Virus record (IMG/VR): IMGVR_UViG_3300021399_000101
Coordinates: 65,630-129,629 of that record
Strand: one strand, 5' to 3'
Source: a virus
Lineage: Duplodnaviria; Heunggongvirae; Uroviricota; Caudoviricetes
Length of the DNA stretch: 64,000 nt
Made by a program: the position numbers and the translations under genes. This document shows, in pieces, positions 7,857 through 62,506 of the stretch; the first letter of the stretch is position 1; each line of letters opens with the position of its first letter. The notes below the pieces were generated by a model. The model searched no databases and was not told the DNA's origin. It saw only the letters and a list, made by a program, of their open reading frames with translations.

Positions 7857-8842
7857 ATTATATCTTTTACACATAATACACTATTGTATCTTCTTAAGAG
7901 GAAGTCATTGACGCATCCTCTTATTTTTTTCTTTTCTATACCTACCCCAAGAGGTTGGATGAACCAAAACTTATTTCCGCCCTTCCATCTTCTCGGACAT
8001 TCCGCCAATAACCTCTTGCTTAATTGCTTATCAAATCCGTTAAGCGTATTCACATAGATAACCAATGTGCTTAATACACCGGCTTCGTTTACGTCGGTCT
8101 TGATCCATTCATCTACGGCATCGCTGAATTTCTTCATATCAGTATCATCGTTGATTATGCCATAATAAAGTTTTGTCTGACTTGCATAAGGACCCATCCA
8201 AGACAGAGCATGACAGTGCTGACAATATGGCGTTCTCTCGTCTTGCATCACACGGTTCAGCATATAATCATTGACACCGAATTGAATCCTGTTTACCAAT
8301 TTAATTCCAGCAACGTCAACATCCTTAAGACTGCCATACACTTTGTCTTTCTCAAAGTCGAATCCCTTTTCTCTTAATACCAAATCTATAGGCCAGTTAT
8401 TATGCCAAGGTGATTCCGGGTCGTACTTTAAGTTTCTGTATTTCTCAATCCACTCGTAAACTATAGGGTCGCCCTTCTTTACATATGTGAAGCATCCGTT
8501 GTTGCTCCAATGACTGCAGAACTTATCATCCCAGGAAATAAAGGTAGTCTCGAAATAAGAGTCTGGAATTCTGTTTATACAGAACACATCAGTATCCATA
8601 TAAATTCCACCATACTCATACAGGAACTTAAGGCGAGTATAATCAATTACATAAGCATATCTCTTTCTCTCATAGTTGTCACGGGCGTATTCACAATCTT
8701 GAGCGTACTCTTTTATGGTCTTGTCCGTCCAAACTTTAATCTCAAAATCGGGATATACTCTTTTCCAGCTTTCTATACATTGCACTTCATGATTTGAAAG
8801 CTGGCTCATACCTACTTTCATCAGGTGAATTATTTTATCCAT
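7844..8842 (-). CDS. GT32-family glycosyltransferase (Gly_transf_sug, DXD motif)
   Basis: MDKIIHLMKVG...ESWKRVYPDFEIKVWTD...YAYVIDYTRLKFLYEYGGIYMDTDVFCINRIPD matches the GT32 sugar-binding region. Ribosome-binding site GAGGTATAATAAGATG. Confidence 0.75.
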   Translation of the reverse strand: MDKIIHLMKVGMSQLSNHEVQCIESWKRVYPDFEIKVWTDKTIKEYAQDCEYARDNYERKRYAYVIDYTRLKFLYEYGGIYMDTDVFCINRIPDSYFETTFISWDDKFCSHWSNNGCFTYVKKGDPIVYEWIEKYRNLKYDPESPWHNNWPIDLVLREKGFDFEKDKVYGSLKDVDVAGIKLVNRIQFGVNDYMLNRVMQDERTPYCQHCHALSWMGPYASQTKLYYGIINDDTDMKKFSDAVDEWIKTDVNEAGVLSTLVIYVNTLNGFDKQLSKRLLAECPRRWKGGNKFWFIQPLGVGIEKKKIRGCVNDFLLRRYNSVLCVKDIMKGR

Positions 8843-24754: not shown

Positions 24755-24827
24755 GGGGTCGTCGTCTAACCGGTTAGGACACCGCCCTTTCACGGCGGCA
24801 ATCCGGGTTCAAGCCCCGGTGACCCTG
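24755..24827 (+). tRNA. tRNA, anticodon loop CTTTCAC (UUC, Glu) by manual folding
   Basis: Acceptor GGGGTCG/TGACCCT (two GU pairs). D stem GTCT/GGAC. Anticodon stem CCGCC/GGCGG. T arm CCGGG-TTCAAGC-CCCGG. Confidence 0.6.
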
Positions 24828-25078: not shown

Positions 25079-25285
25079 CAAAAAGCTTAAAAATTTATAT
25101 AATTTAATAAGCGGAAACACAGTAGAAATGATTTAGTGAGAATGTCAGCAAATAATAAGTTTTTGTAGGTGTAGTTAAAGGGATAAAACGTCCGAAAGGA
25201 AAATCCGGGTTCGAATCCCGGCTCCCACCGCTTCCTCTCTTTCAGAGGGCATTCTCAGAGTTTTTTGATAAATATTTTTTAATTT

Positions 25286-36802: not shown

Positions 36803-37309
36803 GTGTGCCTTATGAAGAAGTATAAAGTTGGTATGTATGGTGGAAAATTTCTGCCTTTTCACAAAGGGCATTTTCATTGTTTACAGAGAGCAAGTGAAGA
36901 GTGCGAGTTAGTTTATTGCGTTCTTGTTACCGGCGGGTTTGATGAAAAAAGAATTCTTTCTGAAAGAAAAGATGATTTTTTACAACCTTCATCTAGAATA
37001 GAAACCATTAAAAAAATTTGTGAAGACAATTTTGATAATGTGAAATTTGCTACTATTGATGTTACAGACTGCGTAAAAGAAGATGGCAGCGAAGATTGGG
37101 ATGGCGAAACACCTCTTATGGTTGAAGCATGCGAAGGCCATACGCTTAATGCCGTGTATGGTAGTGAGCCGGCTTATAAGGCTTACTTCAATAATGCTTA
37201 TCCATTTGCTGAATATGTTTTGGTAGATATTGATAGAAAAGAAGTTCCTATTTCTGCAACAATGATTAGAAATATGGATGAAAAGGAGAGAAAAAAGTGG
37301 ATGGTCTGA
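36803..37309 (+). CDS. NMN/NaMN adenylyltransferase-like nucleotidyltransferase (HxGH family, NadM/NadR-type)
   Basis: GMYGGKFLPFHKGHFHCL matches the G-x-F-x-P-x-H-x-G-H signature. Confidence 0.6.
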   Translation: MCLMKKYKVGMYGGKFLPFHKGHFHCLQRASEECELVYCVLVTGGFDEKRILSERKDDFLQPSSRIETIKKICEDNFDNVKFATIDVTDCVKEDGSEDWDGETPLMVEACEGHTLNAVYGSEPAYKAYFNNAYPFAEYVLVDIDRKEVPISATMIRNMDEKERKKWMV

Positions 37310-38022
37310 AAAATTTGAAGAACACCGCTAAAAGCCTTAAGTGGTATGAATGGGCGATGTTCGGAGTTATGGTTGTTATAGCTGCGTATGCTATGATATC
37401 AGCGTTTGTAAACCCAGATAGTTCTAAAAACCCCGCATGGCTTACGGTGGTAAATTTTATAAGTGCTGTTTGTGGAGTTGTATGTATTTTCTTCTGTGCT
37501 AAGGCAAGTATCAGTAATTTTGCTTTTGGCTTGGTTAATACTGTGGTTTATATAGTTTATCTATGGTATTGGAAAATATATGGCACAATGATGCTTGAAC
37601 TAATTGTGTATTTGCCGGTTGGTATAGCTTCGTGGAAGCTATGGTCATTACATAGAGATGAAGTTCAGGAAGAACTTACCAAAGCCAAGAAACTGAAGTA
37701 TTGGCAGGACGCACTTGTAGTGGCGATAGTTGTAATAAGCACTATAGTATACCATGCGATTTTGGTTAAAGTTGGCGGTAATGTTGCTTGGCTTGATGCC
37801 ATGACAGTGGCTATCGGCGTAATTGCCACATTCCTTGAAATGTTCCGTTACAGAGAGCAGTATGTACTCTGGCTTGTTACAGACTTTATAGCAGTAGCTA
37901 TGTACATAGTTCATTTCGACGCAGTATACCTTACGAAAAAGAGCATTTATCTCATCATGGCTATCATAGGGCTCATCAATTGGGTTAAGTTAAATAATGA
38001 GAGAAACAAACTCAACGAGTGA
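37297..38022 (+). CDS. pnuC: PnuC-like nicotinamide riboside transporter (multi-pass membrane protein)
   Basis: About 240 aa with 7-8 transmembrane segments. Overlaps the NMNAT-like gene in its 3' end, an arrangement typical of nadR-pnuC. Confidence 0.5.
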   Translation: MDGLKNLKNTAKSLKWYEWAMFGVMVVIAAYAMISAFVNPDSSKNPAWLTVVNFISAVCGVVCIFFCAKASISNFAFGLVNTVVYIVYLWYWKIYGTMMLELIVYLPVGIASWKLWSLHRDEVQEELTKAKKLKYWQDALVVAIVVISTIVYHAILVKVGGNVAWLDAMTVAIGVIATFLEMFRYREQYVLWLVTDFIAVAMYIVHFDAVYLTKKSIYLIMAIIGLINWVKLNNERNKLNE

Positions 38023-40658: not shown

Positions 40659-41182
40659 ATTGCCAAGAGTTTTGTGATATGTTTAATGTGTGGATTGGTT
40701 TTGACCAATCCGGTTATGGACAGATATTTGCGGAGAAGCCAAAGCTGATAGAAAAAGATAATTTCTTTCTTTGCAAAGATGATGCTAAACTTTTACCCTG
40801 TTTAGTAAGTGATTTTGCTGAATGGTCAAATCGTAGGCGAACTGTTCTCTTCTCTCCTGGGCAGAAGATGGAGACTAAGGACAAAGGAAAGGTTATTATG
40901 GAATGTAGCGATTTTAAGAAAGGTGATATTTTTACTGGTAATGTTCTTGTAAGAGAAGTATTCACAATGCCAGACCCTATAAACGACGGCGAGAAATTTA
41001 TCATAACTTGCCGTGATGATAACGGGCATGATTTAGTTTGGACAACTAGAGCGAAAAATATACCTAATCAAAATGACAGAAAGCTTTTGAAAGCAAAGGT
41101 TGTCGGAAACTGCGCTTCTGCTGAGTATGGAATTCCAGCTTTTGAAGTTACAAGCTGCATCTTTACAAGGGAGAAAAAATGA
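40655..41182 (+). CDS. hypothetical protein (175 aa)
   Basis: ATTGA overlap. Ribosome-binding site GGAGGGGGAGAATATTG. Confidence 0.5.
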   Translation: MNCQEFCDMFNVWIGFDQSGYGQIFAEKPKLIEKDNFFLCKDDAKLLPCLVSDFAEWSNRRRTVLFSPGQKMETKDKGKVIMECSDFKKGDIFTGNVLVREVFTMPDPINDGEKFIITCRDDNGHDLVWTTRAKNIPNQNDRKLLKAKVVGNCASAEYGIPAFEVTSCIFTREKK

Positions 41183-41931
41183 GTAACATTATGGACTGGG
41201 CAACTCGTGAGGTTGAGATTGCTTGCAAAAAAGAGAACCCCGACAGAAAAGATGGCGAATGGGATTACGGTTGCGCTTGCTACGAATCTGCTTTAAAAGC
41301 ATATAACTCGCTTCTTGAAGACGGACATTCAGGCTTCAGTTTTTCTTTGACCAGAAATATTTTAATCAGACTGATGAATCATCTTCCGCTTACGCCTATA
41401 ACAGATGAAGACTTTTTCATGGCAGATAAAGATACTTTCCCTAACGACCCGGAGTGGCTTGCCAGTAAGGGTCTTAAATCAGATATACAATGCCCAAGAA
41501 TGCCCTCGCTGTTTAGATACGAAACCTTAGACGGTAAAGTGTCCTATCACGATAATGACAGAGCGTTTTGTTATGATGCAGATAACCCCAAAAGCACTTA
41601 TGATTTCGGCTTTTTCACAAGCATTGTTGATGATATGTTCCCCATTACTATGCCATACTATCCAATAAACGAAAAATATGAATTGGAATGTTCGGAGGTA
41701 TTGTTCGACAAGAACAACGGCGACTTTGATACTGTGGCTCTTTGGAGTATTACTACTCCAAGCAAGGAAAAGATACCTGTTAATCGTTTTTGGAAAGAGT
41801 CTGAAAACGGGTTTGCTGAGATAGATTATGAAGAGTGGAAATTTCGCAGCACTCATAAAATAGATGGCTCTAAGAAAAAAGGCTTGACAGAAAAGGTAAG
41901 GGATAATATTATTGAAACCGAGAAAGGATAA
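41179..41931 (+). CDS. hypothetical protein (250 aa)
   Basis: ATGA overlap. Confidence 0.55.
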   Translation: MSNIMDWATREVEIACKKENPDRKDGEWDYGCACYESALKAYNSLLEDGHSGFSFSLTRNILIRLMNHLPLTPITDEDFFMADKDTFPNDPEWLASKGLKSDIQCPRMPSLFRYETLDGKVSYHDNDRAFCYDADNPKSTYDFGFFTSIVDDMFPITMPYYPINEKYELECSEVLFDKNNGDFDTVALWSITTPSKEKIPVNRFWKESENGFAEIDYEEWKFRSTHKIDGSKKKGLTEKVRDNIIETEKG

Positions 41932-47812: not shown

Positions 47813-48709
47813 ATGGATTTTTTAGAGTTTAAGAAACTTGTGTTAGAAAAAGCAAAAGAGAAAAATTTAGACAAAAACGCTTTGATACGTCTAAGAACTG
47901 AACTCTTTCATGCTGAAGTTTATTATAAAGATATCGGCGATTTATATGAAGATTTAACAACAAAAGAAATAAAAACTAAAGCCGGCATCATTCCTTTTGT
48001 ATTAGGACTGTCTGAACTTGATGTAAACGAACCTTTGAAATTTGTTCAAGTAAGGCCGGGAGCAAGCGGCGGTATTGATGTTGACTCAGACTTCTCTGGT
48101 GTCGGTCGTGATTTAATCATTAAGTATTTGAAAGACAAATATGGCGATGATTGCGTCACACCAGTTGGAACAACATCGACACTTCAAATGAAAGTGGCGT
48201 GTAAAGATTTGCTTCGTTACGCTTGTTCAACCGTCGCAGAGGCAAATGAATTTACCAAAGAGCTTGATGATGAAATTTCATTTGAGGAAAATATAAAACA
48301 CTTGTTAGCAGGAACCTCACCAGCGAGAGATATTTACATCAAGTATCAGAAGATACTTGATTTGGTTCCAAGATTTTTAGGAAAAGCAAGAAATATTGGT
48401 AAGCATGCTGGTGGAGTTGTACTAACTCCAAAGCCGATTTGGAATTATTGTCCGGTAGAGTTATCAAGTGATGAAATTGTTACGGCTTTTCCGGAATCGG
48501 GAACGTCGCAGTACCTTGATGAAATAGGCTTGGTCAAACTGGATTTACTTGCAATATCTGTCTTAGATGTTATCCAAGAAACAGTTGACCTTATTGATGA
48601 AGAATTATATTTAATTGAAGAAGACGGAATTCAAAAGATAGTACCGAAATCATATATTGATTTTTGTAAAAACAATGGCATAGAGGTTACTGATGAAGTG
48701 GAGAATTGA
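47813..48709 (+). CDS. dnaE: DNA polymerase III alpha (DnaE) palm-domain fragment. It is an isolated 298-aa piece lacking the PHP N-terminus and the C-terminal fingers, OB and beta-binding parts.
   Basis: GIDVDSDFSG...LIIKYLKDKYG (PDxDxDF catalytic region) and GKHAGGVVL plus GLVKLDLL motifs, collinear with the central part of DnaE. Confidence 0.6.
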   Translation: MDFLEFKKLVLEKAKEKNLDKNALIRLRTELFHAEVYYKDIGDLYEDLTTKEIKTKAGIIPFVLGLSELDVNEPLKFVQVRPGASGGIDVDSDFSGVGRDLIIKYLKDKYGDDCVTPVGTTSTLQMKVACKDLLRYACSTVAEANEFTKELDDEISFEENIKHLLAGTSPARDIYIKYQKILDLVPRFLGKARNIGKHAGGVVLTPKPIWNYCPVELSSDEIVTAFPESGTSQYLDEIGLVKLDLLAISVLDVIQETVDLIDEELYLIEEDGIQKIVPKSYIDFCKNNGIEVTDEVEN

Positions 48710-50389: not shown

Positions 50390-50430
50390 GCAACCTTGAC
50401 AAAAGGCTTCTGTTCTGTTACAATGTAAGG

Positions 50431-50467
50431 GGTTCGGACGTGTGAGCCCCAAATTTTTTCACTTCGT
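50431..50467 (+). terminator. rho-independent terminator (GGGGTTC-GGACGTGT-GAGCCCC, then AAATTTTTT)
   Basis: 7-bp stem plus T-run. Confidence 0.55.
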
Positions 50468-51480
50468 GTCAAGTTCAAGTGATGACTGTAAAGAGAACCC
50501 GCAAATTCGCAGGTCGGTGGCTTAAATCTTGACTTGAACGATTAAAGGCTTGCATGGAGCGAAAACCCTTACTTCCAAGGGGTTCAGAGTAACTCCAAGC
50601 CACTTGACGGCAATTCTGAAAACTGCTATAATTAAAGCACCAAGTAGGAAATGCTGGAAGTCAGATGGTTAGGCTTTCTCGAAAGGACTATAAACACAAG
50701 TAAAGCCGTTGTTATTGGTTTGGGTGGGTGCTTGACTATCTAAAGAAGCACTACGCAGGGGGTCAGCGTTTAGAGAAGGCTCCAACTGTTTGGTCACAGT
50801 TGACAACTTAAAGTTTCAAGACAACGAAAAGAAAACTAGACTATGTTCACGGCGTAAGGCGGATACATTTACTTTAATAATGAGATACCGCTAACCTCAG
50901 TCCGGCTTGGCAACCGAACGGGTTAAATAGTTGAGCCATGGGGCTTGACGCCAAATCATGAATTTGGTATAATATTTATGTGAGTTGACTGGGGTTTAAT
51001 GGAGGTTGCACTGATGTGTGGTAAAATGTTCCTACCGATTAAGGTTCGATTCCTTAACAACTTATCGGTCACTGTTGGGTATTGAGGCTGAAACAGTGGC
51101 AAGTGATATTGGTATTTTCTAGGGATATTGATGTTGCTAGGCTTATGGCGGTTGCAAACGCCATGCTGAAATAACACTATGGGATTTTATCATAACCGTC
51201 CACCCACGGCACGATGAAACAAGTTCGACTCTTGTTAGTGTTAATAGGGTTTTTGGCAGTTCTGCAGACCCGCTCTAGCGAAGCAAAACTGCAAGTGTTC
51301 TCGTGTTGACCACCATGAGGTAATTCGCCGTTGGGCTGGTCACCCAATAAAGGATAGAGTTAATTGGTATGGTGAAATGCCAAAGTGGGCAGAGTAGACA
51401 CAGGGTTCAAGTCCCTGCTATCCAGTCAAAAGTCAAGTTGAGGGCTTGGCACCAAATCAAAAATTTGGTATAATGTGTGT
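50468..51480 (+). other. about 1 kb non-coding region with at least four consensus-like promoters (near 50585, 50945, 51434 and the upstream 50395), several long hairpins and degenerate tRNA-like T-arm/acceptor modules (e.g. 50984-51070 and 51330-51410)
   Basis: No ORF with a ribosome-binding site on either strand. TTCGATT and TTCAAGT T-loop-like hairpins with flanking complementary acceptor-like strands. Confidence 0.4.
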
Positions 51481-51494
51481 GTGAGGTAAAAAAA

Positions 51495-51707
51495 GTGGAG
51501 ACAAATAAAAACCTTGATGTAAAAAGTTCAGGTATGAGTTGGTCATGGGCAACAACTATTGTCCTTATATTGCTTAAAGCGTTTGATAAAATCAATTGGA
51601 CATGGTTCCAGGTGTTTTTACCTGCAATTTGTGGGGTGGCGTTGAGATTGGTGGTTGCCATCATCTTGATTGCTTTCGCGTCGGTTGTTTCAAAGTATTC
51701 AAACTAA
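51495..51707 (+). CDS. small membrane protein (about 70 aa, GTG start; alternative ATG at 51533)
   Basis: Ribosome-binding site TGAGGTAAAAAAAGTG. Two hydrophobic segments. Confidence 0.4.
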   Translation: METNKNLDVKSSGMSWSWATTIVLILLKAFDKINWTWFQVFLPAICGVALRLVVAIILIAFASVVSKYSN

Positions 51708-51805
51708 GCGGTTCAAGATGCATTTGTCTCGCATCTTGAAAAACTTGACGGCATTTCTCAAAAATGCTATAATTAAGTATCAAGTAAAGAAGGAAGGTGA
51801 ATAAA

Positions 51806-51991
51806 ATGGCTAAAGAGAAGGTTAAGACTTCAAAAACTTTTATCGTTCAGAGAACCTATGAGGTTATCGTTCAGGCTTACGACCGTGACGACGCAATCTC
51901 TCAGGCAGCGATGTTTGACCCGACTCCGGAGAGCATGGTCGGCGTCAAGTGCGGTACTCCGAAGCAGATGAAGAGAACTGATGTGGAGTAA
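51806..51991 (+). CDS. small protein (61 aa) with high-expression-type codon usage
   Basis: Ribosome-binding site AAGGAAGGTGAATAAAATG downstream of the 51745 promoter. Confidence 0.55.
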   Translation: MAKEKVKTSKTFIVQRTYEVIVQAYDRDDAISQAAMFDPTPESMVGVKCGTPKQMKRTDVE

Positions 51992-52062
51992 GAAGGGTAT
52001 CGTCTTATGAGGGGCAGTCGCCCCTTATATCGAATCTTTGATTGAGGTATCGTATGTTCGCT

Positions 52063-52173
52063 AATACTCTTGCTAAAATCTTGATTGTTGTGGCGATTGG
52101 TGCCCCAGTATCATTACTTGTTTGCCTTACAATCAGATGGTGTAGAAAAATTCTAAAGGGGTAAAAAAATGTT
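52063..52173 (+). CDS. small transmembrane peptide (36 aa)
   Basis: Ribosome-binding site TTGAGGTATCGTATG. Hydrophobic. Confidence 0.3.
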
Positions 52174-52558
52174 CGTAAAAAGATTGGGTTTCTTAAAAGC
52201 AGTTTGCCCTCATTGTGGAGCAGAGATAACACTCAGTAATGATGAGTATTTGAAATACCGCAAAGAGGTCGAAGACTATGGCGGTTCAGTTATTACCTGT
52301 CAGAGAAAAGACGAGAACGGTATAAACTCTGATATTAACTATACCAATATGAACTGCCCGGTGTGTAAAGGTTACATACCAATGACTGTTTCTGATGGTA
52401 TTGATTCAGACATCTTCGGCTTCTGTTTCTCAAAATGCGTAACTCCTATCTATGACCCCTTAAAAGAGATAAAAATAGATGATTGCATCAAAAATTTCTT
52501 CGGTGATGATGAAGAGGAAGACGAAGAAGAGGAAGATGGTTGTACCGGCATAAGGTAA
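52169..52558 (+). CDS. Zn-ribbon protein with an acidic C-terminal tail (129 aa)
   Basis: CPHCG...CPVCKG. Ribosome-binding site AAAGGGGTAAAAAAATG. Confidence 0.5.
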   Translation: MFVKRLGFLKAVCPHCGAEITLSNDEYLKYRKEVEDYGGSVITCQRKDENGINSDINYTNMNCPVCKGYIPMTVSDGIDSDIFGFCFSKCVTPIYDPLKEIKIDDCIKNFFGDDEEEDEEEEDGCTGIR

Positions 52559-52599
52559 AAAATCAAACTTGACGAAAACTCTGAAAATTGTTATAATGT

Positions 52600-53160
52600 A
52601 TATGTAAAATGTAACATGGGTTGCTAGCTGGCTTTACGGTGATAGACCGGGCTTATGTTAACTCAAGAAGTTTGGAGCGAAAATCCCTATGGTAACTTTT
52701 GGGAAAGAGTAATCTGTCAAACTTCACGAATGGGTTTGAGGTGTAATTTGGGTACACACAAAAGGGTTCAACTCCCTCTCAGACCTTTTTAATACCGCAT
52801 TTAATTCTAGGGGTGGTATCCTAGCTTGCTCTATCGTTTTTTGAGGTTTCGGGAGTTCAACGAGCAAGTAAAATATTGACAAAAATAAAACCAAGGGATT
52901 GTTTGGCAGGTGGGTTCGACTCCCACACAATCTTTATTCGGTGCGATTGTTGGTAACTGGTTTTCAGCCGTGCGACAAAAATGAGAACTTGTTCCCCTAA
53001 GAGTATGTCGCTAATCTCTTAGGTTTTAATGTTTGCTTGTCTTACTCAATCGAGTATCAATGTTGGTAAACGAGGGTTCGATTCCCTTCAAGCAAAAATT
53101 ATGTGTCAGTAGGAAAGAAAAAATCACGTCAGATGATAAAGAAATCCGAAAGCACTTTAT
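52600..53160 (+). other. cluster of degenerate tRNA-like modules and hairpins downstream of the 52568 promoter
   Basis: Includes a T-arm at 52770-52790, an acceptor plus T-arm minihelix at 52896-52934, an 8-bp hairpin at 52993-53023, and an anticodon-arm-less tRNA-like at 53033-53095 (TTGCTTG acceptor, TACTC/GAGTA D-like arm, AGGG-TTCGATT-CCCT). Confidence 0.35.
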
Positions 53161-53162
53161 AT

Positions 53163-53234
53163 ACCCTCTTGGTGTAGCGGTTAGCACGTGAGATTGTCGA
53201 TCTTTAAGCAGGGGTTCGATTCCCCTAGGGGGTG
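53163..53234 (+). tRNA. tRNA, tentative anticodon GUC (Asp), with a 27:43 mismatch
   Basis: Acceptor ACCCTCT/AGGGGGT. D arm GTGT-AGCGGTTA-GCAC. Anticodon loop TTGTCGA. T arm AGGGG-TTCGATT-CCCCT. Confidence 0.5.
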
Positions 53235-53399
53235 TAAGCAGTAATGATGAGATTTTCGGGGACGCCCGAAAAAGAGCCCTGCCACGCTAATGGCACAGGT
53301 TAACCTATATAGACGTAAGCTGGTTTTGGAGTCATTCTCCAAGAAATGCAAGATATTAAATGCCAGACTTGCAGGAACAGGGGCAAAACTGCTTTTAAT

Positions 53400-53470
53400 G
53401 TTCCCATCGACTAATAGCAGGTCGCTACCTTCTCAGGGTGGAAATATTGGTGCAAATCCATTTGGGAATA
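53400..53470 (+). tRNA. tRNA family member A: acceptor GTTCCCA, anticodon loop TTCTCAG (CUC, Glu), non-canonical T-loop TGCAAAT
   Basis: GTTCCCA-TC-GACT-AATAGCA-GGTC-G-CTACC-TTCTCAG-GGTGG-AAAT-ATTGG-TGCAAAT-CCATT-TGGGAAT-A. Confidence 0.5.
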
Positions 53471-53478
53471 AAAAGAAG

Positions 53479-53508
53479 TTGACAAAAAATTTAAAATTTG
53501 TTATAATA
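53479..53508 (+). promoter_or_regulatory. sigma70-like promoter
   Basis: GTTGACAAAAAATTTAAAATTTGTTATAATATTTG. Confidence 0.5.
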
Positions 53509-53527
53509 TTTGTGTAAGGGGTTATAA

Positions 53528-54025
53528 ATGGTTTATCATTTTGTAAAGCATATTGGTATTGATGTTGAGGCTGATTCGCTTGAACAAGCTATGGATTTCG
53601 TCAATGACATTGATAACTGCGATGATATCATTGAGGATGCTGTATATCACTGTACAGAAGATGATGTCAATGATTTCGCTTCTGATGTCGCTAGTGTTAG
53701 CACCCATTGCGGTTATACAGAATATGCTGGTTATACTGATGATGTTGAAGAGGATGATGATTCTTGGAAGGCAGAAAAGAATTTTTATGACTATCTTACT
53801 GATGATGAGGAAGAGGTTCGTTATGTCATTACCGATAAGGGGCGTGACTGGCTTGCCCATATGAACGGTGAATATCCCGAGTATGACGAAAACAACTATG
53901 ACGAGCATGGTTCTCGTATAAAAGATACCTCAGACGAGGTTGACGAACTTGCCCTGTTTAAAAAGCTATTTTTTGACCTTAAAAAAAAGGCTCATAAAAA
54001 CTCTTTCGCACGGGAGAGACCGTGA
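53528..54025 (+). CDS. acidic hypothetical protein (165 aa)
   Basis: Ribosome-binding site TAAGGGGTTATAAATG after the promoter. Asp/Glu-rich. Confidence 0.6.
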   Translation: MVYHFVKHIGIDVEADSLEQAMDFVNDIDNCDDIIEDAVYHCTEDDVNDFASDVASVSTHCGYTEYAGYTDDVEEDDDSWKAEKNFYDYLTDDEEEVRYVITDKGRDWLAHMNGEYPEYDENNYDEHGSRIKDTSDEVDELALFKKLFFDLKKKAHKNSFARERP

Positions 54026-54259
54026 GGTAGTTACTTACAACTAGCACATTACACTAGAGTCTGAGTAGTGCGAGTGGGCAGGACACGAATGTGCTTTAAT
54101 CTGTGAGAGAAGGTTTCTAAGGGTAGAGTACTATGCGTTTAGAGATTAGCTCGTTCTGCGAAAACCGACACACGAATGCCAAATCCGCTTAAGTCGATTG
54201 TAAGTGCACAAAGTAGAGATAAAGGTCGCCTCGAAGTTAGCAGAGTAGCAGATTTTAAT

Positions 54260-54330
54260 GTTCCCATCGACTAGTAGTAGGTCGCTTGGTTCTCAGCCAA
54301 GAAACATTGGTGCAATTCCATTTGGGAATA
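54260..54330 (+). tRNA. tRNA family member B: anticodon stem CTTGG/CCAAG, loop TTCTCAG (CUC)
   Basis: Same acceptor, D and T arms as member A. The anticodon stem differs by compensatory changes. Confidence 0.5.
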
Positions 54331-54474
54331 AACTTGCGAAAAAATGTTTATAAATAATCTTTGCGGTTTTTATGAATATTTGCACCGTCAAAACTTGATA
54401 CCGGTTTCTCCAGTAGGGAGTCAAAGTAGGGATATAGTTGCCGCCCGAAGTTGGCACCGCTAGCAAGTTATAAT

Positions 54475-54546
54475 GTTCCCTTCGAATAATGGTTAGTTCG
54501 TCAGATTTTCAATCTGAAAACATCGGTTCAACTCCGTTAGGGAATA
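54475..54546 (+). tRNA. tRNA family member C: anticodon loop TTTTCAA (UUC, Glu), canonical T-loop TTCAACT
   Basis: GTTCCCT-TC-GAAT-AATGGTTA-GTTC-G-TCAGA-TTTTCAA-TCTGA-AAAC-ATCGG-TTCAACT-CCGTT-AGGGAAT-A. Confidence 0.6.
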
Positions 54547-54731
54547 TCGGGTTAAACGACACCCACGAAAAGAACGTTAGGCACTAAAAGTTCCACCTTT
54601 ATGGAAGCAAGCATTTTCGATGGTTTTAGCAACAAAACCATAACAACTTGTTTGCTGAGGTACAAGTAGGTAAACGAAGTGGGGGTCGCCAGTGAATGGT
54701 ATACCGAGTGCGATACCTTATTTTTTATAAT

Positions 54732-54801
54732 GTTCCCATCGACTAATGCAGGTCGTCACCTTCTCAGGGTGGAAATATTGGTTCAAGTCCATTTGGGAAT
54801 A
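54732..54801 (+). tRNA. tRNA family member D: anticodon stem TCACC/GGTGG, loop TTCTCAG (CUC), canonical T-loop TTCAAGT
   Basis: GTTCCCA-TC-GACT-AATGCA-GGTC-G-TCACC-TTCTCAG-GGTGG-AAAT-ATTGG-TTCAAGT-CCATT-TGGGAAT-A. Confidence 0.6.
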
Positions 54802-54896
54802 TCTGGTTAAAAAACACCCATTAAAAGAAATTCTCGGTTTGTAGCTTTAGACACCGCCTTGCCTCTTAACGACTGTAAGGTTTTAAAGAACTATGT

Positions 54897-54962
54897 GTTC
54901 CCATAGACCAAGTTGGTCATCACTTCTTAGTGAAGAAATTGGTGCAAGTCCGATTGGGAATA
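54897..54962 (+). ncRNA. tRNA-like family member E with a collapsed anticodon arm (TCACT-TCTT-AGTGA, a 4-nt loop); probably not decodable
   Basis: Shares acceptor GTTCCCA/TGGGAAT and T-arm with members A-D. 66 nt. Confidence 0.4.
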
Positions 54963-55344
54963 AATGTAAAACAAAGTTGAGCAGTTTTCAGCCATCTGAA
55001 ATATAGGTGGAGCCGTAACACTTTTAGGCTCAATGAAATCGTCAACACTTCTGACCAAGTTTGGCGTCCCTTTTCTTCAAATTCTTTTAGGGTATGCGTA
55101 GAAATAAAGAACACCGTTTCACCCTTTATCGGTATTTAGAAGAAGGGTAGGTGAGCCTTTGTGCAATTTGCGTATTTTGACCTGAGGATATTAAATACGA
55201 CGAGCGTGAGAGTGGGTAGATGGAGCAAGTTGGTCAGCGATGCTACTCACATAATGTGCCACGTTGCGAGTTTCTTAGGGGCAGATGCAGGTGCTCCTAA
55301 GGGATTTGCGAAGTAGCACATACTTTTTTATTAAGGAGAGGAAG

Positions 55345-55689
55345 ATGAAAAGTTATTTTAGATATGTTCGTAAGGAAAACGGTGCTGGAATTGGTGCTAT
55401 CGCTATCGAAGAGGACGAGCACGGCATCTTTAATATAGGTGCTTCAGTTTGTGCCCCTAATGATACTTTCAGCAAGGATACGGCAAGGTTTATTGCCTTT
55501 AACAAGGTGAGTTCCATTCCACTCAGATTTTCGTTTTATGAGCTTGTCGACAACGACTGGTATGATGAGTTCGTTTCTATTCTCCCTTATAGGGACGAAG
55601 CGATTGAGCTTTTCGTGGCTACCTTCTTTGACATGATAGATGACATTATCATGGATTATGCAAAGGAGCATTACAAGACTCTGGTTTGA
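55345..55689 (+). CDS. hypothetical protein (114 aa)
   Basis: Ribosome-binding site TAAGGAGAGGAAGATG. Confidence 0.5.
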   Translation: MKSYFRYVRKENGAGIGAIAIEEDEHGIFNIGASVCAPNDTFSKDTARFIAFNKVSSIPLRFSFYELVDNDWYDEFVSILPYRDEAIELFVATFFDMIDDIIMDYAKEHYKTLV

Positions 55690-55754
55690 ACGACATCAAT
55701 CAGGTTTTAATATAATGGCAAGCAGTCTAACATTATTGTTAGACTGCTTTTTTA

Positions 55755-55783
55755 TTGACAAAAAATCTAAAGTTTATTATAAT
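55755..55783 (+). promoter_or_regulatory. sigma70-like promoter
   Basis: ATTGACAAAAAATCTAAAGTTTATTATAATGTAAA. Confidence 0.55.
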
Positions 55784-55827
55784 GTAAATATAGAGCAAAA
55801 AAAATATTTTTAAAGGAGACAAACAAA

Positions 55828-56625
55828 ATGGTTTATGTTACTGGTGATACCCACGGTGATGTATCAGACCCAAGATGGGATTGGTTTGATGAACATCTTA
55901 CTTCAGACGACATTTTAATTATTACCGGCGACTTTGGCTTTGATTGGAATGATGACATTCGAAAAAAATGGCAGAATTTCAAGCATGATTATATCGTTTT
56001 GTTTTGTGACGGCAATCATGAAAACTATGATGTCCTAAATTCATTGGATACCATTAAGAAGTTTGACGATATTGTAGGCGTTTTTGGCAATAACACTTAT
56101 CGGCTTTTTACCGGGCATATGTATATTATTGAGGGTAAAAAGTATTTTGTGTTCGGCGGAGCATCGTCTATTGACAAGGACTGGAGGGTTGAGTACGAGG
56201 AGAAAAATAACTCCCCTAGAACTCTTTGGTGGCCTGAAGAGGTTCCTTCTGAGGACACATTGCTTCTTGCAAAGAACACTTTAGCCAAACATAATTACAA
56301 GTTTGACTATTTTATTACTCATACTTGTAATCCACAGCTTAAAGGGCCCGTACTAAAAACCTATAAGATGGATTTTTATGACCCAACTGAATCAATGATT
56401 AATCATCTTGAATATCTTATTAGGGAAAACAATGGAGACTTCAAATACAACTTCTTCGGACACTTTCACAAAAATGTCCATTTTCTCAAATATCATTGTC
56501 TTTATGGAGACATTGTTAATCTGGACGATTCTAAAATCATTAAGGGTTTTGACGATTTTTCCTTCGAGACTTGGGAAACCTACCCACTTGAGGAAAGCGA
56601 AAGGTCGGAAATAGTTTCTGTTTAA
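55828..56625 (+). CDS. calcineurin-like metallophosphoesterase (MPP3)
   Basis: VTGDTHGD, ITGDFGFD, CDGNHENYD motifs. Ribosome-binding site TTAAAGGAGACAAACAAAATG. Confidence 0.75.
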   Translation: MVYVTGDTHGDVSDPRWDWFDEHLTSDDILIITGDFGFDWNDDIRKKWQNFKHDYIVLFCDGNHENYDVLNSLDTIKKFDDIVGVFGNNTYRLFTGHMYIIEGKKYFVFGGASSIDKDWRVEYEEKNNSPRTLWWPEEVPSEDTLLLAKNTLAKHNYKFDYFITHTCNPQLKGPVLKTYKMDFYDPTESMINHLEYLIRENNGDFKYNFFGHFHKNVHFLKYHCLYGDIVNLDDSKIIKGFDDFSFETWETYPLEESERSEIVSV

Positions 56626-56674
56626 TTTGACAGAAATTCTCGAAATTGATATAATTATTGTGAAGAGGGAGAAT

Positions 56675-56848
56675 ATGTTTAACATTGTAGTTTGGATTAT
56701 TGTCTTGATTTTTGCTTCAATAACGACATTTGTTTCTTTTGCCAATTATCGCAACTCCCATATGAAACTTCATTTGGTCGCCATAATACTTGGTGCGTTT
56801 GTCGTTGTTCTTGAGGTGATGGCTCTTATTATGGTACATAAGGTATGA
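56675..56848 (+). CDS. small membrane protein (57 aa)
   Basis: Ribosome-binding site GAAGAGGGAGAATATG downstream of the 56624 promoter. Confidence 0.45.
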   Translation: MFNIVVWIIVLIFASITTFVSFANYRNSHMKLHLVAIILGAFVVVLEVMALIMVHKV

Positions 56849-57054
56849 GTAACAAAACTTATAACAACATAAAAAACTTAATAGCATTTATTGCCACAAT
56901 CGCTTTTGCAGTATGCAAGGTGATTGGGGTAATTTCTGCATCTTGGTGGTTAATTGTGGTTCCCCTGTTATTAGCGATGGTGTTCCAAGTCAAAGAAGAT
57001 GACGACGATGACGAGGGTGGGTCTAATTCGAGCAATAATCTTAAAATGGCATGA
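56845..57054 (+). CDS. small membrane protein with an acidic tail (69 aa)
   Basis: ATGA overlap. Hydrophobic core then DDDDDEGG. Confidence 0.45.
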   Translation: MSNKTYNNIKNLIAFIATIAFAVCKVIGVISASWWLIVVPLLLAMVFQVKEDDDDDEGGSNSSNNLKMA

Positions 57055-57064
57055 GGTGCTTATT

Positions 57065-57610
57065 ATGAGTAAAAAGATTCTAATTGTTGTTGATATGCAG
57101 AACGATTTCATTGATGGAGTTCTTGGTAATCCCTACAATAAAGAAGTTGTTCTACCTAACGTGATTAAAAAAGTTAAGCAGGCTAACAGAAACGGAAACT
57201 ATGTTTTCTTTACTTGCGATACCCACTTTCAGAGAGATTTCCACGAATCTATTGAAGGTCAAAGGCTTCCACTTCATTGCGAATTTAACACGCATGGATG
57301 GCAAATAAATGAAGAGCTTTCTAAAGTTGTCAATTCTTCCCCAATTCTAGTATGGAAGCCCACTTTCGGCAAATTGAATTGGAAGGAATATATTGGGCAC
57401 CTTGTTGATGATGATGTTGATGAAAATACTGAAATTGAACTTTGTGGTCTTTGTACTGATATTTGTGTTGTCAGCAATGCACTCATTCTCAGAGCTATGT
57501 ATCCCAATAATAAAATCACAATTGACTCTTCATGTTGTGGCGGGACAACTCCCGAAGCACATGAGTCAGCTTTAACTGTAATGCGTTCTTGCATGATTGA
57601 TATTGTTTAA
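57065..57610 (+). CDS. isochorismatase-family cysteine hydrolase (nicotinamidase PncA-like)
   Basis: ILIVVDMQNDFIDG signature and CGLCTDICVVSNALILRA (catalytic Cys region). Ribosome-binding site TGAGGTGCTTATTATG. Confidence 0.7.
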   Translation: MSKKILIVVDMQNDFIDGVLGNPYNKEVVLPNVIKKVKQANRNGNYVFFTCDTHFQRDFHESIEGQRLPLHCEFNTHGWQINEELSKVVNSSPILVWKPTFGKLNWKEYIGHLVDDDVDENTEIELCGLCTDICVVSNALILRAMYPNNKITIDSSCCGGTTPEAHESALTVMRSCMIDIV

Positions 57611-57637
57611 TGCGTTTTTTCTCATACTTAAAATCAA

Positions 57638-57679
57638 AAGGTAAGTGGTCTTAGGTGGGTTCAATTCCCACCTACCTTA
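57638..57679 (+). ncRNA. tRNA-like minihelix (acceptor-like AAGGTAA / CTACCTT flanking a T-arm GTGGG-TTCAATT-CCCAC)
   Basis: Same architecture as 52896-52934. Lies directly after the stop at 57610. Confidence 0.3.
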
Positions 57680-57699
57680 TAAATTAAACAAGGTGAAAA

Positions 57700-57894
57700 A
57701 TGGTTAAGAAGATTTTAATTACCATTATTTTGGTAATAGTTCTGGCTTTTGTCGTCCATTGGACTGGCATACCACTTGGCTCATATATTGACAGAGCACT
57801 CGATTGGGTGTTCTCTTGGACTAACAAAATTATTCCAAGACTGACAGAAATTCTGCCTGCATGGGGAGAAAAGATTAAGTCCACTTTGAACTGA
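57700..57894 (+). CDS. small membrane protein (64 aa)
   Basis: Ribosome-binding site AAACAAGGTGAAAAATG. Confidence 0.5.
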   Translation: MVKKILITIILVIVLAFVVHWTGIPLGSYIDRALDWVFSWTNKIIPRLTEILPAWGEKIKSTLN

Positions 57895-57945
57895 TTTTTT
57901 GTTCCCTCCCTCCTGCCAGAAAGCGAAAGCAACTCTTGAAATTTT

Positions 57946-57971
57946 AGCACTCTTGATGAGTGCTTTTTTTA
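57946..57971 (+). terminator. rho-independent terminator (AGCACTC-TTGAT-GAGTGCT followed by T7)
   Basis: Perfect 7-bp stem plus T-run. Confidence 0.65.
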
Positions 57972-57972
57972 T

Positions 57973-58000
57973 TGACAAAAAAAGCAAAATTTGTTATAAT
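57973..58000 (+). promoter_or_regulatory. sigma70-like promoter
   Basis: ATTGACAAAAAAAGCAAAATTTGTTATAATATAAG. Confidence 0.55.
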
Positions 58001-59230: not shown

Positions 59231-60337
59231 ATGGCACATGAACTTGCAGTTATATCTAAGATTCAGAGTATTACTCCAATTGAAGGAAAAGACTTCATTG
59301 AGCTTGCTAGAATTGAGAACTACGACTCAGTAGTTCAGAAAGGCGAGTTTAAGGAAGGCGATATTGCTATATATGTTTTTTATGACTCTATTCTTCCTCA
59401 GAGGGAGGAATTTGAGTTTCTTAGAAAGAGATGCTGGTCTCCTAAGTATCAGGGGTTTAGAATTAGACCTATGAAACTTGGCAATGTTGTATCAGAGGGC
59501 CTCGTTCTTCCTATGTCTGTACTTCCGCAGAATAAGAAATACAAGGTCGGTGATGTTGTTACTGACGACCTTGGCATTGTTCTTTATGACCCGGAATATA
59601 ACCCTTCTAAGCCGAAGGCAGAGCCCAAGGGATTCTTTAAGGCTCTTATGAAGATTCCTGCTTTTAGGAAACTTGTCAATCGTTATTATGCCTTTAAGAA
59701 GGCTCATAATAACAAGAATTATCCTAATTGGGTTGTCAAGTCCGACGAGGATAATATTGAAAAGCTTTGGGATAAGGTTAAAGACAATTCCTCAGTTTTT
59801 ATTCTTACTGAAAAAGTTGAAGGTATGTCCACTTCTTATGCAATCGAGAAGGGCAAGTTCAAGGTTTATTCTCATAATTGGAGAGTGAAGGAAGGTGCTT
59901 GGGTTGAGTACGCCGTAAAGCACAATATTGAGGCAAAGCTTAGAAAACTCTGCAAGAATAATGGCTGGAAGTCTATTTGTATTCAGGGCGAGCTTGTCGG
60001 CCCTACAATTCAGAGAAATATCTATAATCTTAAAGACTTTGATTTTTATATGTTTGGCGGATACTATGCAGATGGTCAGAAATTCACTTGGAGCGACGTC
60101 TGTAATGTTGCAAGCTGGATTGACGAAAAGACCGTTCCTAGACTTGGCACAAAGCACATTTCCGATTTTGACGGACTTGATGCAATAATCAAGAACGCAG
60201 ATGGAAAGTCAAAAATTTATAATGTCAAAAGAGAGGGAATTGTTTGGAGAGACCAGTCTGGGTCAGTACATTTCAAAGCCAAGTCTAGGGACTACAAGGT
60301 GTGGTTTGAGAAGAAAGCTGAGAAGGAAGGCGAGTAA
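59231..60337 (+). CDS. ATP-dependent polynucleotide ligase of the covalent nucleotidyltransferase superfamily (RNA-ligase-like, with an N-terminal OB-like domain)
   Basis: Motif I TEKVEGMS (KxEG), motif III ICIQGELVGP, motif IV REGIVWR, motif V HFKAKSRDY. The size and N-terminal domain resemble Rnl-type ligases. Confidence 0.6.
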   Translation: MAHELAVISKIQSITPIEGKDFIELARIENYDSVVQKGEFKEGDIAIYVFYDSILPQREEFEFLRKRCWSPKYQGFRIRPMKLGNVVSEGLVLPMSVLPQNKKYKVGDVVTDDLGIVLYDPEYNPSKPKAEPKGFFKALMKIPAFRKLVNRYYAFKKAHNNKNYPNWVVKSDEDNIEKLWDKVKDNSSVFILTEKVEGMSTSYAIEKGKFKVYSHNWRVKEGAWVEYAVKHNIEAKLRKLCKNNGWKSICIQGELVGPTIQRNIYNLKDFDFYMFGGYYADGQKFTWSDVCNVASWIDEKTVPRLGTKHISDFDGLDAIIKNADGKSKIYNVKREGIVWRDQSGSVHFKAKSRDYKVWFEKKAEKEGE

Positions 60338-62122: not shown

Positions 62123-62326
62123 GTGAGAAAAATGAATGTAACAAAAAGTCAGTTCAAAAGGCTGTCTCTTACAAGAGGTGCTTTAATCAGAGAACGAGAA
62201 ACAAAGATTGCCCAATATGAAGAACAGAAAGAGATGTTAAATGAAAATGAGACATCTACTCTTTTGGACAATATAAACACTTTGGCGTCAAGAATAAATA
62301 AGATAGACGAAAAAATTGGGGTGTAA
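62123..62326 (+). CDS. small hypothetical protein (67 aa)
   Basis: Ribosome-binding site AAGGTGAGAAAAATG. Confidence 0.45.
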   Translation: MRKMNVTKSQFKRLSLTRGALIRERETKIAQYEEQKEMLNENETSTLLDNINTLASRINKIDEKIGV

Positions 62327-62397
62327 ATGGTGTCGATTGGAGTTCAAGACCCCAAGCGGGAAACTTCAAGACGTGGGTTCAATTCCCACACGCTCCA
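62318..62397 (+). ncRNA. tRNA-like, type-II-sized (80 nt): acceptor GGGGTGT/ACGCTCC, T-arm GTGGG-TTCAATT-CCCAC, candidate anticodon loop TTCAAGA (CAA). The D-arm is not resolvable by eye.
   Basis: 7-bp acceptor (two GU pairs) and a canonical T-arm. The first 18 nt (GGGGTGTAAATGGTGTCG) recur at 61967. Confidence 0.35.
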
Positions 62398-62506
62398 CTA
62401 TGACTGGAAGTATATTTGGTGATATTTGTATTACATTGGTAGTTGCAACAACGTGCTTTTGTGTAGGTTGCCTCTTTTTGGCAATTTATAAATATATAGT
62501 AAAATA

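Follow-up and report, generated by a model that had tools for sequence, protein, structure and literature searches.

Why would a single phage keep five tRNA-Glu-type genes next to each other? The question is raised by a 64,000-nucleotide stretch of DNA (the window) from the viral record IMGVR_UViG_3300021399_000101 (Caudoviricetes), in which five tRNA or tRNA-like genes, here called copies a to e from 5' to 3', lie between positions 53400 and 54962. An initial annotation of this DNA had described them as paralogues with one shared scaffold and diversified anticodon stems, and had interpreted them as decoy or replacement tRNAs that evade a host anticodon nuclease. Judged by their pattern of substitution, copies a to d are not pseudogenes but are maintained by purifying selection in a clade of jumbo phages from the rumen. 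They are probably working tRNA-Glu genes of a phage-specific lineage, three with the anticodon CUC and one with UUC, and copy e is probably a derivative that does not decode. What is odd about the family is not a fast anticodon stem but the near-frozen remainder of the Glu scaffold.

ARAGORN predicts 11 tRNA genes in the window, five of them at 53399-54963 on the + strand: tRNA-Glu(CUC) at 53399-53471, 54259-54331 and 54731-54803, tRNA-Glu(UUC) at 54474-54548, and, at 54896-54963, a "tRNA-???" whose anticodon is given as 2 nt. With the Rfam tRNA model, copies a to d all exceed the gathering score of 29 bits (Table 1), and copy e gives zero matches even at E <= 5. A family-specific covariance model recovers copies a to d at 89-94 bits and copy e at a lower score. 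Tool scoring, which the initial annotation had proposed as a check, returns copies a to d as tRNAs. We use the Rfam register, in which U8, G10, G26 and U13·G22 stand as in E. coli tRNA-Glu; the ARAGORN register, which begins at U(-1), was rejected because the Rfam register reproduces these positions. With the two tRNA-Glu(UUC) genes at 24755 and 62889, already noted in the initial annotation and found to be real by both ARAGORN and Rfam, at least eight Glu-type genes lie in the ~85 kb seen (UUC at 24755, 54475 and 62889; CUC at 53400, 54260, 54732 and, immediately past the window end, at 20724 of contig L001; copy e).

Copies a, b and d share the scaffold GTTCCCA-TC-GACT-(D-loop)-GGTC-G-(anticodon arm)-AAAY-ATTGG-(T-loop)-CCATT-TGGGAAT-A. 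The claim that all five copies have this scaffold holds for these three, while copies c and e differ in several stems: copy c has GTTCCCT/AGGGAAT, GAAT/GTTC and ATCGG/CCGTT, three pairs unlike a, b and d, and copy e has GACC/GGTC as D stem and a fully paired T stem, ATTGG/CCGAT. In the family, pair 50-64 is a conserved U·U or U·C mismatch. None of the five copies encodes CCA, and all carry A73 and a G1·U72 wobble. The four anticodon stems that had been quoted are exact, and so are the loops, TTCTCAG in three copies, TTTTCAA in one and a collapsed TCTT in copy e. Copies a to d have cloverleaf stems of 7/4/5/5 bp and 7-nt anticodon loops (UUCUCAG three times, UUUUCAA once) in which U33 and a purine at position 37 flank a Glu anticodon; in copy b the loop-proximal anticodon-stem pairs are flipped to G-C. 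Copy e forms four helices, and its loops are altered. Minimum-free-energy folding gives a cloverleaf for copies a, c and d but not for copy b. The identity set of E. coli glutamyl-tRNA synthetase (GluRS) comprises U13·G22, A46, the absence of nucleotide 47, U35 C36 A37, U2-A71 and G1-C72. Copies a to d carry U13·G22, a 4-nt variable loop (AAAU or AAAC), U35 C36 A37 and U2-A71.

Relatives were reached by two routes. Homologues of the neighbouring RNA ligase, the phosphoesterase and an acidic open reading frame (ORF) led to the syntenic contigs L011, L107, L109, L110, L112 and L113, which come from several rumen studies and which, in the region covered, hold the acidic ORF followed by two or three same-scaffold tRNA-Glu(CUC) genes. 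Searching the collections with the scaffold pattern led to the rumen contigs L018, L019, L030, L044 (with an array of four copies), L052, L068 and L076, and also retrieved tRNA arrays of remoter phages, whose sources were lakes, sediments and the human gut. The operon arrangement is kept in L011, L107, L109, L112, L113, L018, L044, L052 and L076. The comparison with related phages, also suggested at the outset, thus reveals both the operon and the tRNA-Glu(CUC) array to be conserved.

Among 22 distinct family members, 95.7% of the cells are paired and 10 pairs show double changes, which none of 500 shuffles equalled. All five pairs of the anticodon stem show such double changes and not one is broken. 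Because this set was partly ascertained via the acceptor and D-stem sequence, a second count used 14 CUC copies in six genomes that were found only via neighbouring proteins. Here the anticodon stem varies at 10 of 10 sites (pi ~0.46) with pairing always kept, whereas the remaining stems vary at 5 of 32 (pi 0-0.13; Fisher's exact p = 2e-6). The loop reads UUCUCAG in 13 of these 14 copies. When the window is compared with L011, identity is 88-94% for the tRNAs and 74% for the ligase protein, and the spacers for the most part cannot be aligned. Because of the covariation, the near-fixed loop and the conservation against diverged flanks, we read copies a to d as maintained genes. Compensatory stem change together with selection on the fold, as initially proposed, is thus borne out in both sets.

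The anticodon stem is less special than had been supposed. It does vary, and the changes are compensated, but the tRNA-Asp orthologues of the same genomes show an anticodon stem just as variable (pi 0.49 vs 0.46 for Glu), so that the rate seen in Glu is the background of the clade. In tRNA-Asp the other stems vary as well (acceptor pi 0.23-0.29, T stem 0.24, D stem 0.15). The Glu scaffold may be frozen because it is very strongly constrained, or because recombination, both among copies and among phages, keeps it uniform.

Recombination is indeed evident. L018 has a CUC copy at the position of the UUC copy of the window (54475) with a near-identical downstream flank, and L076 carries the exact copy a sequence at the copy b position. 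Moreover, discrete stem alleles recur, namely TTAGG/CCTAA, CAACC/GGTTG, CTACC/GGTGG, TCACC/GGTGG and TTACC/GGTAG, and the TTAGG/CCTAA copy is identical in L107, L112 and L113.

The copies also differ in the elbow, where D-loop and T-loop meet. Type A (copies a and b) combines a D-loop AAYAGYA with a T-loop UGCAAWU, that is A18-G19 with U54-G55-C56; the non-canonical T-loop TGCAAAT reported initially for some Glu genes is the one seen in copy a. In type D (copy d) the D-loop is 6 nt long and contains only one G, the T-loop being normal, and among the five only copy c has the canonical elbow (G18-G19 with U54-U55-C56). A18/G55 recurs in tRNA-Phe (L011 12641-12714), tRNA-Lys (L014 5263-5333), tRNA-Gln (L073 3236-3307) and tRNA-Met (L092 ~5026), and all tRNAs with a UGC T-loop in the fetched loci have AG for GG in the D-loop, copy e excepted. 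Since U-G-N-R-A is an accepted T-loop motif, we see A18/G55 as what looks like a covarying tertiary pair in five isotypes (Glu, Phe, Lys, Gln, Met) and not as damage. Its recurrence in other tRNAs of related phages makes it probably a viable variant. Additionally, A18-G19 stays linked to UGC although stem alleles reassort and are found with both elbow types, which argues for selection on the tertiary fold. We found no description of this elbow variant in the literature searched.

The first base pair deserves separate mention. Three unrelated tRNA-Glu scaffolds of this phage have G1·U72, as does the tRNA-Glu of Aeromonas phage 4_4572 (loci: window 24755-24827 and 53400-54962, L001 20724-20795, L106 1494-1568). 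The tRNA-Glu of Acinetobacter phage AM24 has A1-U72, and pair 1-72 is Watson-Crick in the window's tRNAs for Asp, Lys, Leu and Met. Hence a weak pair at this place, with U72, seems characteristic of phage tRNA-Glu.

The five copies belong to two predicted transcription units. The gaps between them measure 789, 143, 184 and 94 nt. The last three agree with the spacers of 95-190 nt first reported; the first does not, and it holds a promoter, the 165-aa acidic ORF and a structured RNA. Nor are the spacers unique throughout, as had been stated, since the 3' flanks of 54475 and 54732 are ~78% alike and a block of ~50 nt is common to the upstream sides of 54260 and 54475. The promoter in the first gap, whose counterpart precedes the acidic ORF in L011 and L107, heads a unit consisting of the acidic ORF, the structured RNA, copies b, c, d and e, a non-coding stretch, ORF134 and a terminator hairpin, in this order. 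Copy a and a tRNA-Asp close the preceding unit. Eight near-identical extended -10 promoters lie on the + strand (50396, 50604, 50945, 51446, 51745, 52569, 53479 and 55755); that at 55755, the next after the terminator, would drive a metallophosphoesterase gene. The region that they span, 50396-55783, is an ORF-poor "RNA island" in which each promoter heads a unit that is short and made up of tRNAs, tRNA-like elements and small ORFs.

A T(T/A)TAATG box, said to precede each gene, is present at four of the five copies. We rejected it as a promoter, because it abuts the mature 5' end (+1), has no -35 partner and is missing from the consensus scan; it is instead a conserved A/T-rich leader in which, among 17 copies from six genomes, position -1 is U in all and position -2 is A in 16. 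In view of the known behaviour of bacterial RNase P, we read this leader as an RNase P processing context.

The acidic ORF stands directly upstream of the tRNA-Glu(CUC) copies in all relatives examined and has 36 homologues. It belongs to no Pfam and no PHROG family, its AlphaFold2 model is weak (pLDDT 72.8, pTM 0.38), and Foldseek found no fold match in the PDB. By these searches it is not recognisable as a DNA mimic, and no likeness to Ocr is detectable. Its stop codon lies inside the first hairpin of the structured RNA, which is present in six relatives, was aligned in five, and follows the acidic ORF in the contigs of the neighbour route wherever that stretch was read. The 5' core of this RNA (~54009-54100) has three covariation-backed helices and the conserved loop GAGTCTGAG, the middle is variable, and the 3' block is again conserved (AAGTAGAGATAA..CTCGAAGTTGGCA). 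RNAalifold proposes 28 pairs, 7 of them with compensatory changes. A search of 54009-54259 against Rfam at E <= 5 gave no family, including ROOL, GOLLD and self-cleaving ribozymes, and the RNA seems to be previously undescribed. The conserved stretch after copy e may be another RNA element. For ORF134, Pfam and PHROG scans gave no function.

Table 1. Features of the window discussed in the text, with positions in the 64,000-nucleotide stretch and model scores in bits.
Feature	Position	Strand	Rfam tRNA model	Family model	Remarks
tRNA-Glu(CUC), copy a, type A	53400..53470	+	44.1	93.6	stem CTACC/GGTGG; D-loop AATAGCA (A18 G19); T-loop TGCAAAT (G55)
tRNA-Glu(CUC), copy b, type A	54260..54330	+	50.4	89	stem CTTGG/CCAAG; D-loop AGTAGTA; T-loop TGCAATT
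tRNA-Glu(UUC), copy c	54475..54546	+	59.6		stem TCAGA/TCTGA; D-loop AATGGTTA; T-loop TTCAACT; canonical elbow
tRNA-Glu(CUC), copy d, type D	54732..54801	+	45.7	92.3	stem TCACC/GGTGG; D-loop AATGCA; T-loop TTCAAGT
tRNA-like copy e, apparently non-decoding	54897..54962	+		55.9	anticodon arm TCACT-TCTT-AGTGA (4-nt loop)
tRNA-Asp(GUC)	53163..53234	+	58.1		5' edge of the array; ARAGORN call
tRNA-Glu(UUC), separate GC-rich scaffold	24755..24827	+			G1·U72; ARAGORN, Rfam
tRNA-Glu(UUC), third scaffold	62889..62960	+			G1-C72; ARAGORN, Rfam
Extended -10 sigma-70-type promoter	53479..53507	+			TTGACA-17-TATAAT, 12/12 consensus, with TG
Acidic ORF, 165 aa	53528..54025	+			pI 4.2; 28% Asp+Glu
Structured non-coding RNA	54009..54259	+			alignment of six phages; runs directly into copy b
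Conserved non-coding stretch after copy e	54963..55284	+			AAATGYAAAAC..GTTTTCAGCC..CCGTRACACTTTT; aligned with L110, L109, L011
ORF134, 134 aa	55285..55689	+			last gene of the unit; homologue at the same place in L107, L109
Intrinsic-terminator-like hairpin	55720..55749	+			13 pairs, then a T run; closes the unit
RNA ligase, distant DraRnl type	59231-60337				TIGR02306, 97.8 bits vs cutoff 151
Metallophosphoesterase	55828				
Metallophosphoesterase	45068				
Metallophosphoesterase	35970				
tRNA-like element	51352-51423				acceptor stem and canonical T arm (GGTTCRAnTCC)
tRNA-like element	52732-52786				as preceding
tRNA-like element	52894-52935				as preceding
tRNA-like element	53033-53095				as preceding
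tRNA-like element	25165-25229		38.7		as preceding
Bare tmRNA-like tRNA domain, 83 nt	62318-62400				two ends of the Rfam tmRNA model, 51.2 bits (gathering score 47)

How might such an array work? The consensus early-type promoter would transcribe copies b to e, the acidic gene, the structured RNA and the small ORF as one precursor. Host RNase P would cut at the conserved U(-1) leader, the 3' ends would be trimmed, and CCA would be added; we propose the addition because none is encoded. Host GluRS could then charge the products via the kept part of the identity set (U13·G22, a 4-nt variable loop without position 47, U35 C36 A37). They would give Glu decoding independent of host tRNA-Glu, with a C34 that needs no wobble-uridine modification. 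Because GAG makes up 40% of the Glu codons (GAA:GAG 60:40; GAG 2.8% of all codons, Glu 7.2% of residues, no gene class enriched), a reader of GAG is useful.

Several observations weigh against working tRNA-Glu genes kept to read GAG. The three CUC copies are without G18-G19, and G55 in copies a, b and e may harm maturation or use on the ribosome. G1·U72 stands in place of the G1-C72 of E. coli tRNA-Glu, and copy e does not decode. Moreover, AAG is commoner than GAG, yet the window has no tRNA-Lys(CUU), and codon demand thus fails for three or four CUC genes. We rejected the codon-usage explanation for this reason: the use of GAG is ordinary and does not suffice for so many.

As to why there are several copies, our own tentative apportioning puts first a replacement pool that serves when host tRNA-Glu is cut or depleted, places plain dosage close after it, and leaves the rest unallocated. 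Of the two roles named in the initial annotation, "replacement" fits better; "decoy" fits poorly, because a decoy should resemble its target.

The diversity of the anticodon stems could itself be adaptive, a reading that we regard as possible but doubtful. The phage would then carry isodecoders with alternative stems, some of which would escape any one host tRNase that reads or cuts the anticodon arm of tRNA-Glu. The alternation would concern mainly pairs 30-40 and 31-39, and C34 would remove the modified wobble uridine on which PrrC-, RloC- and gamma-toxin-type enzymes rely. Indeed, the alleles fall into two classes, with these two pairs both C-G or both G-C, and both classes are present in 6 of 7 complete arrays. 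This count is not significant (p ~0.12 by our own estimate), and the arrays are not independent, since common descent of an ancestral pair would suffice. Recurrence of the same alleles across genomes and with both elbow types speaks for adaptive diversity, as do the at least eight Glu-type genes despite ordinary codon use, the position of the array behind promoters matching the consensus at 12 of 12 positions, and a neighbourhood rich in RNA-repair and counter-defence genes (ligase, phosphoesterases, Tad3, PnuC and isochorismatase; PTH2 and NAD salvage in relatives). The missing Glu-specific acceleration relative to tRNA-Asp, the two identical copies in L112 and the invariant anticodon loop speak against it.

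Precedents for such an arms race are published. AriB of the PARIS system recognises the anticodon stem-loop, in which exchanging a U-A pair of the stem for A-U gives resistance, and phage T5's tRNA-Lys escapes (PMC11464382). The bacterial Schlafen RorSlfn5 cuts between nucleotides 30 and 31, and AriB cuts near position 41 (PMC13056530). For RloC, the attack on tRNA-Glu that the initial annotation had mentioned agrees with the literature: upon overexpression in E. coli the favoured substrate appeared to be tRNA-Glu, while the natural substrate was not established (PMC2610378). Additionally, T5 counters retron-Eco7 via an exceptionally strong tRNA-Tyr promoter (PMC11555353), with which the promoters here may be compared. 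An arms race is therefore a plausible reading that the tRNA-Asp control weakens.

Plain dosage may equally explain the array, although we hold this, too, with considerable reserve. A high need for reading GAG, for example in a host that has only tRNA-Glu(UUC), would fix tandem duplicates, and the stems would drift by neutral compensatory change in the least constrained helix; the divergence would shorten the perfect homology of the repeats and stabilise the array. That the anticodon stem is the most variable helix in tRNA-Asp as well agrees with this, and so do the identical pair in L112, a copy number of 2 to 4 across relatives, cassettes that change position, and a longest perfect match between window copies of ~25 nt, as read from the sequences. 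The unremarkable use of GAG and the commoner AAG without a dedicated tRNA in the window argue against it. Discrete stem alleles also persist without change between phages that share only 45-70% identity in their neighbouring proteins, which looks like maintenance and not like continuing drift.

A bolder reading, which we consider unlikely, joins these elements into a "tRNA insurance" operon: an early promoter, an acidic protein that is perhaps a DNA mimic or trigger, a structured RNA and a battery of CUC isodecoders. Escape would rest on C34, on alternative loop-proximal pairs and on the rewired A18:G55 elbow.

A non-translational role is less probable still. The tRNA shapes would serve mainly as RNase P/RNase Z processing signals, by which a polycistronic transcript is divided into mRNA and small RNAs, or would sequester a tRNA-binding factor of the host, as decoys or sponges. 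The RNA island does contain at least six tRNA-like elements without a usable anticodon arm, copy e and, at the same position in L011, a "Pro-like" element belong to this class, and the tRNAs sit among ORFs and a structured RNA in one unit. Processing, however, needs no invariant loop, no Glu identity elements and no constant CUC, yet all of these are conserved, and a decoy should mimic its target and not vary. Finally, recent neutral duplications or pseudogenes are hardly credible: copy e did lose both the D-loop and the anticodon loop, and only modules that are closely related contain it, and the CUC copies have non-canonical elbows, but copies a to d are kept in a clade whose spacers no longer align, every stem substitution is compensated and the array is found in 9 of 9 relatives examined, which contradicts this view for copies a to d.

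Copy e retains the acceptor stem and T arm of the family. Its D arm has closed up into a hairpin of 5 bp, with 3 nt in the loop and no D-loop G, the whole folds as four hairpins (fold z = -3.45), and with its 4-nt loop UCUU it would be unable to decode. It occurs only in the window, L001, L018 and L110, which carry window-like modules. Copy e is identical in L018 and L110, and its flanks are mostly near-identical too (~87% over the whole aligned stretch); we therefore draw no conclusion as to independent purifying selection on it. In L109 its positional counterpart is a normal CUC copy and in L011 another degenerate element, called "Pro(tgg)" by ARAGORN. We think it most fitting to regard copy e as a duplicate of recent origin that now stands among the anticodon-less tRNA-like elements. 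In those listed in Table 1 the anticodon arm is missing or deviant, and they may be processing signals or stable small RNAs; the family model reaches 23.4 bits at 53033-53096. In the tmRNA-like domain, 15 nt replace the 306-nt body with the tag ORF, and ARAGORN makes no call.

Related degenerate genes occur in the relatives. L011 has two Asp-like derivatives with aberrant anticodon loops (6658-6728 and 8148-8221), a "Phe(aaa)" with C33 and a "Pro(tgg)" whose stem of 7 bp carries a loop of 5 nt, and degenerate tRNA-like genes are therefore a general feature of the clade. A tRNA with a 4-base anticodon (gata, 8-nt loop) is conserved between L018 (139-216) and L052 (~1386, reverse strand); at the corresponding place of the window, 52732-52786, the anticodon arm is wholly absent.

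The phosphoesterase 3' of the array has an identical sequence on sheep-rumen metagenome scaffolds, the largest of 207,848 bp. The window also encodes a baseplate wedge protein, an anaerobic ribonucleotide reductase, a DnaE fragment, radical-SAM enzymes and serine hydroxymethyltransferase. Because of this identity and gene content we assign the window to an uncultured sheep-rumen jumbo phage. Its host is probably outside the Bacteroidetes, to judge by the near-consensus TTGACA-17-TATAAT promoters and by Shine-Dalgarno sequences that we read as strong. Among 50,697 phage records, blastn gave zero matches, both with 52000-58000 of the window and with copy a alone. In IMG/VR, a strict tRNA pattern and queries with the phosphoesterase and the acidic ORF returned zero loci, and a relaxed tRNA pattern returned 3, all outside this clade. 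In cellular genomes (185,579 species) the scaffold pattern gave 26 matches with one real tRNA, which lies on a phage-like contig with 18 tRNAs that was binned into a metagenome-assembled genome. As the other 25 are not tRNAs, the scaffold belongs to phages, and an origin by borrowing from a cellular tRNA-Glu was rejected.

The RNA-ligase-like gene and the metallophosphoesterases that had been linked to tRNA repair are real, and ligase and phosphoesterase are kept beside the array in the relatives. We found no polynucleotide kinase. Counter-defence and NAD genes near the array comprise a Tad3-like Thoeris inhibitor (41179-41931), a PnuC-type transporter (37297-38022) and an isochorismatase-family protein (56999-57610). 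L107 has an NAPRTase / NMNAT-like / NUDIX / NAD synthase set (10196-13198), and L109 (8830-9294) and L110 have a PTH2 peptidyl-tRNA hydrolase. A lone 298-aa fragment of DNA polymerase III alpha lies at 47813-48709, and a matching fragment stands between two DUF723 genes in L011 (177-3076), from which we suspect that the polymerase gene is split and that mobile elements interrupt it. In a remoter phage (phosphoesterase 55% identical), L111 encodes a kinase with a HipA_C domain (4944-5891) at a locus without the tRNA-Glu array; HipA of E. coli phosphorylates glutamyl-tRNA synthetase.

The closest known system is the T5 tRNA-Lys, likewise a phage tRNA with the specificity of a host tRNA, which differs from the host tRNA in the anticodon stem-loop, where a stem swap suffices against PARIS (PMC11464382). 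PARIS is triggered by an acidic DNA-mimic protein (PMC11464382), and the array here is predicted to be co-transcribed with a very acidic protein. The present case concerns Glu and not Lys, and has several isodecoders per genome instead of one. With the T5 tRNA-Tyr it may share abundance via a strong promoter, to judge by the matches to the consensus and by the multiple copies; quantity alone acts against retron-Eco7, whereas the copies here also differ in sequence. The ordinary, codon-compensating arrays of phages AM24 and 4_4572 have a tRNA-Glu in a multi-tRNA cluster and share A73, and the AM24 gene is 76% identical to copy c, but each has one tRNA-Glu(UUC) with an encoded CCA end. The T4 cluster resembles the present one in its co-transcribed tRNAs amid small stable RNAs; RNA ligase and phosphoesterases lie nearby here. 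T4 repairs cleaved host tRNA-Lys (PrrC / Pnkp-Rnl1) rather than replacing it, a system to which PMC2610378 and PMC13056530 also refer. The ligase found here is, by contrast, of the distant DraRnl type and comes without the kinase. Copy e, finally, recalls the tRNA-like domain of tmRNA and mascRNA-type signals, in which acceptor and T arm are kept and the anticodon arm is lost or replaced, but it is plainly a recent derivative of the tRNA-Glu family.

To our knowledge, all known cases in which a phage tRNA counters a defence concern a single tRNA in a laboratory coliphage. If dosage explains the array, it is an ordinary, well-documented expansion of tRNA genes. If defence does, it would extend anti-immunity by phage tRNAs to tRNA-Glu and to uncultured gut and rumen jumbo phages, and would represent a new tactic, in which several isodecoders per genome differ where AriB and Schlafen nucleases act. 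Should the joint operon reading be true, Glu decoding would survive AriB-, Schlafen- and RloC-like tRNases and bypass host tRNA-modifying enzymes, and this would be the first within-genome diversification of isodecoders as bet-hedging against tRNA-targeting immunity. Apart from defence, the data offer a phage-restricted tRNA-Glu scaffold with G1·U72, a recurrent, apparently covarying A18/G55 elbow in five isotypes and a structured RNA seemingly fused to a tRNA, three elements that are useful to annotate viral dark matter.

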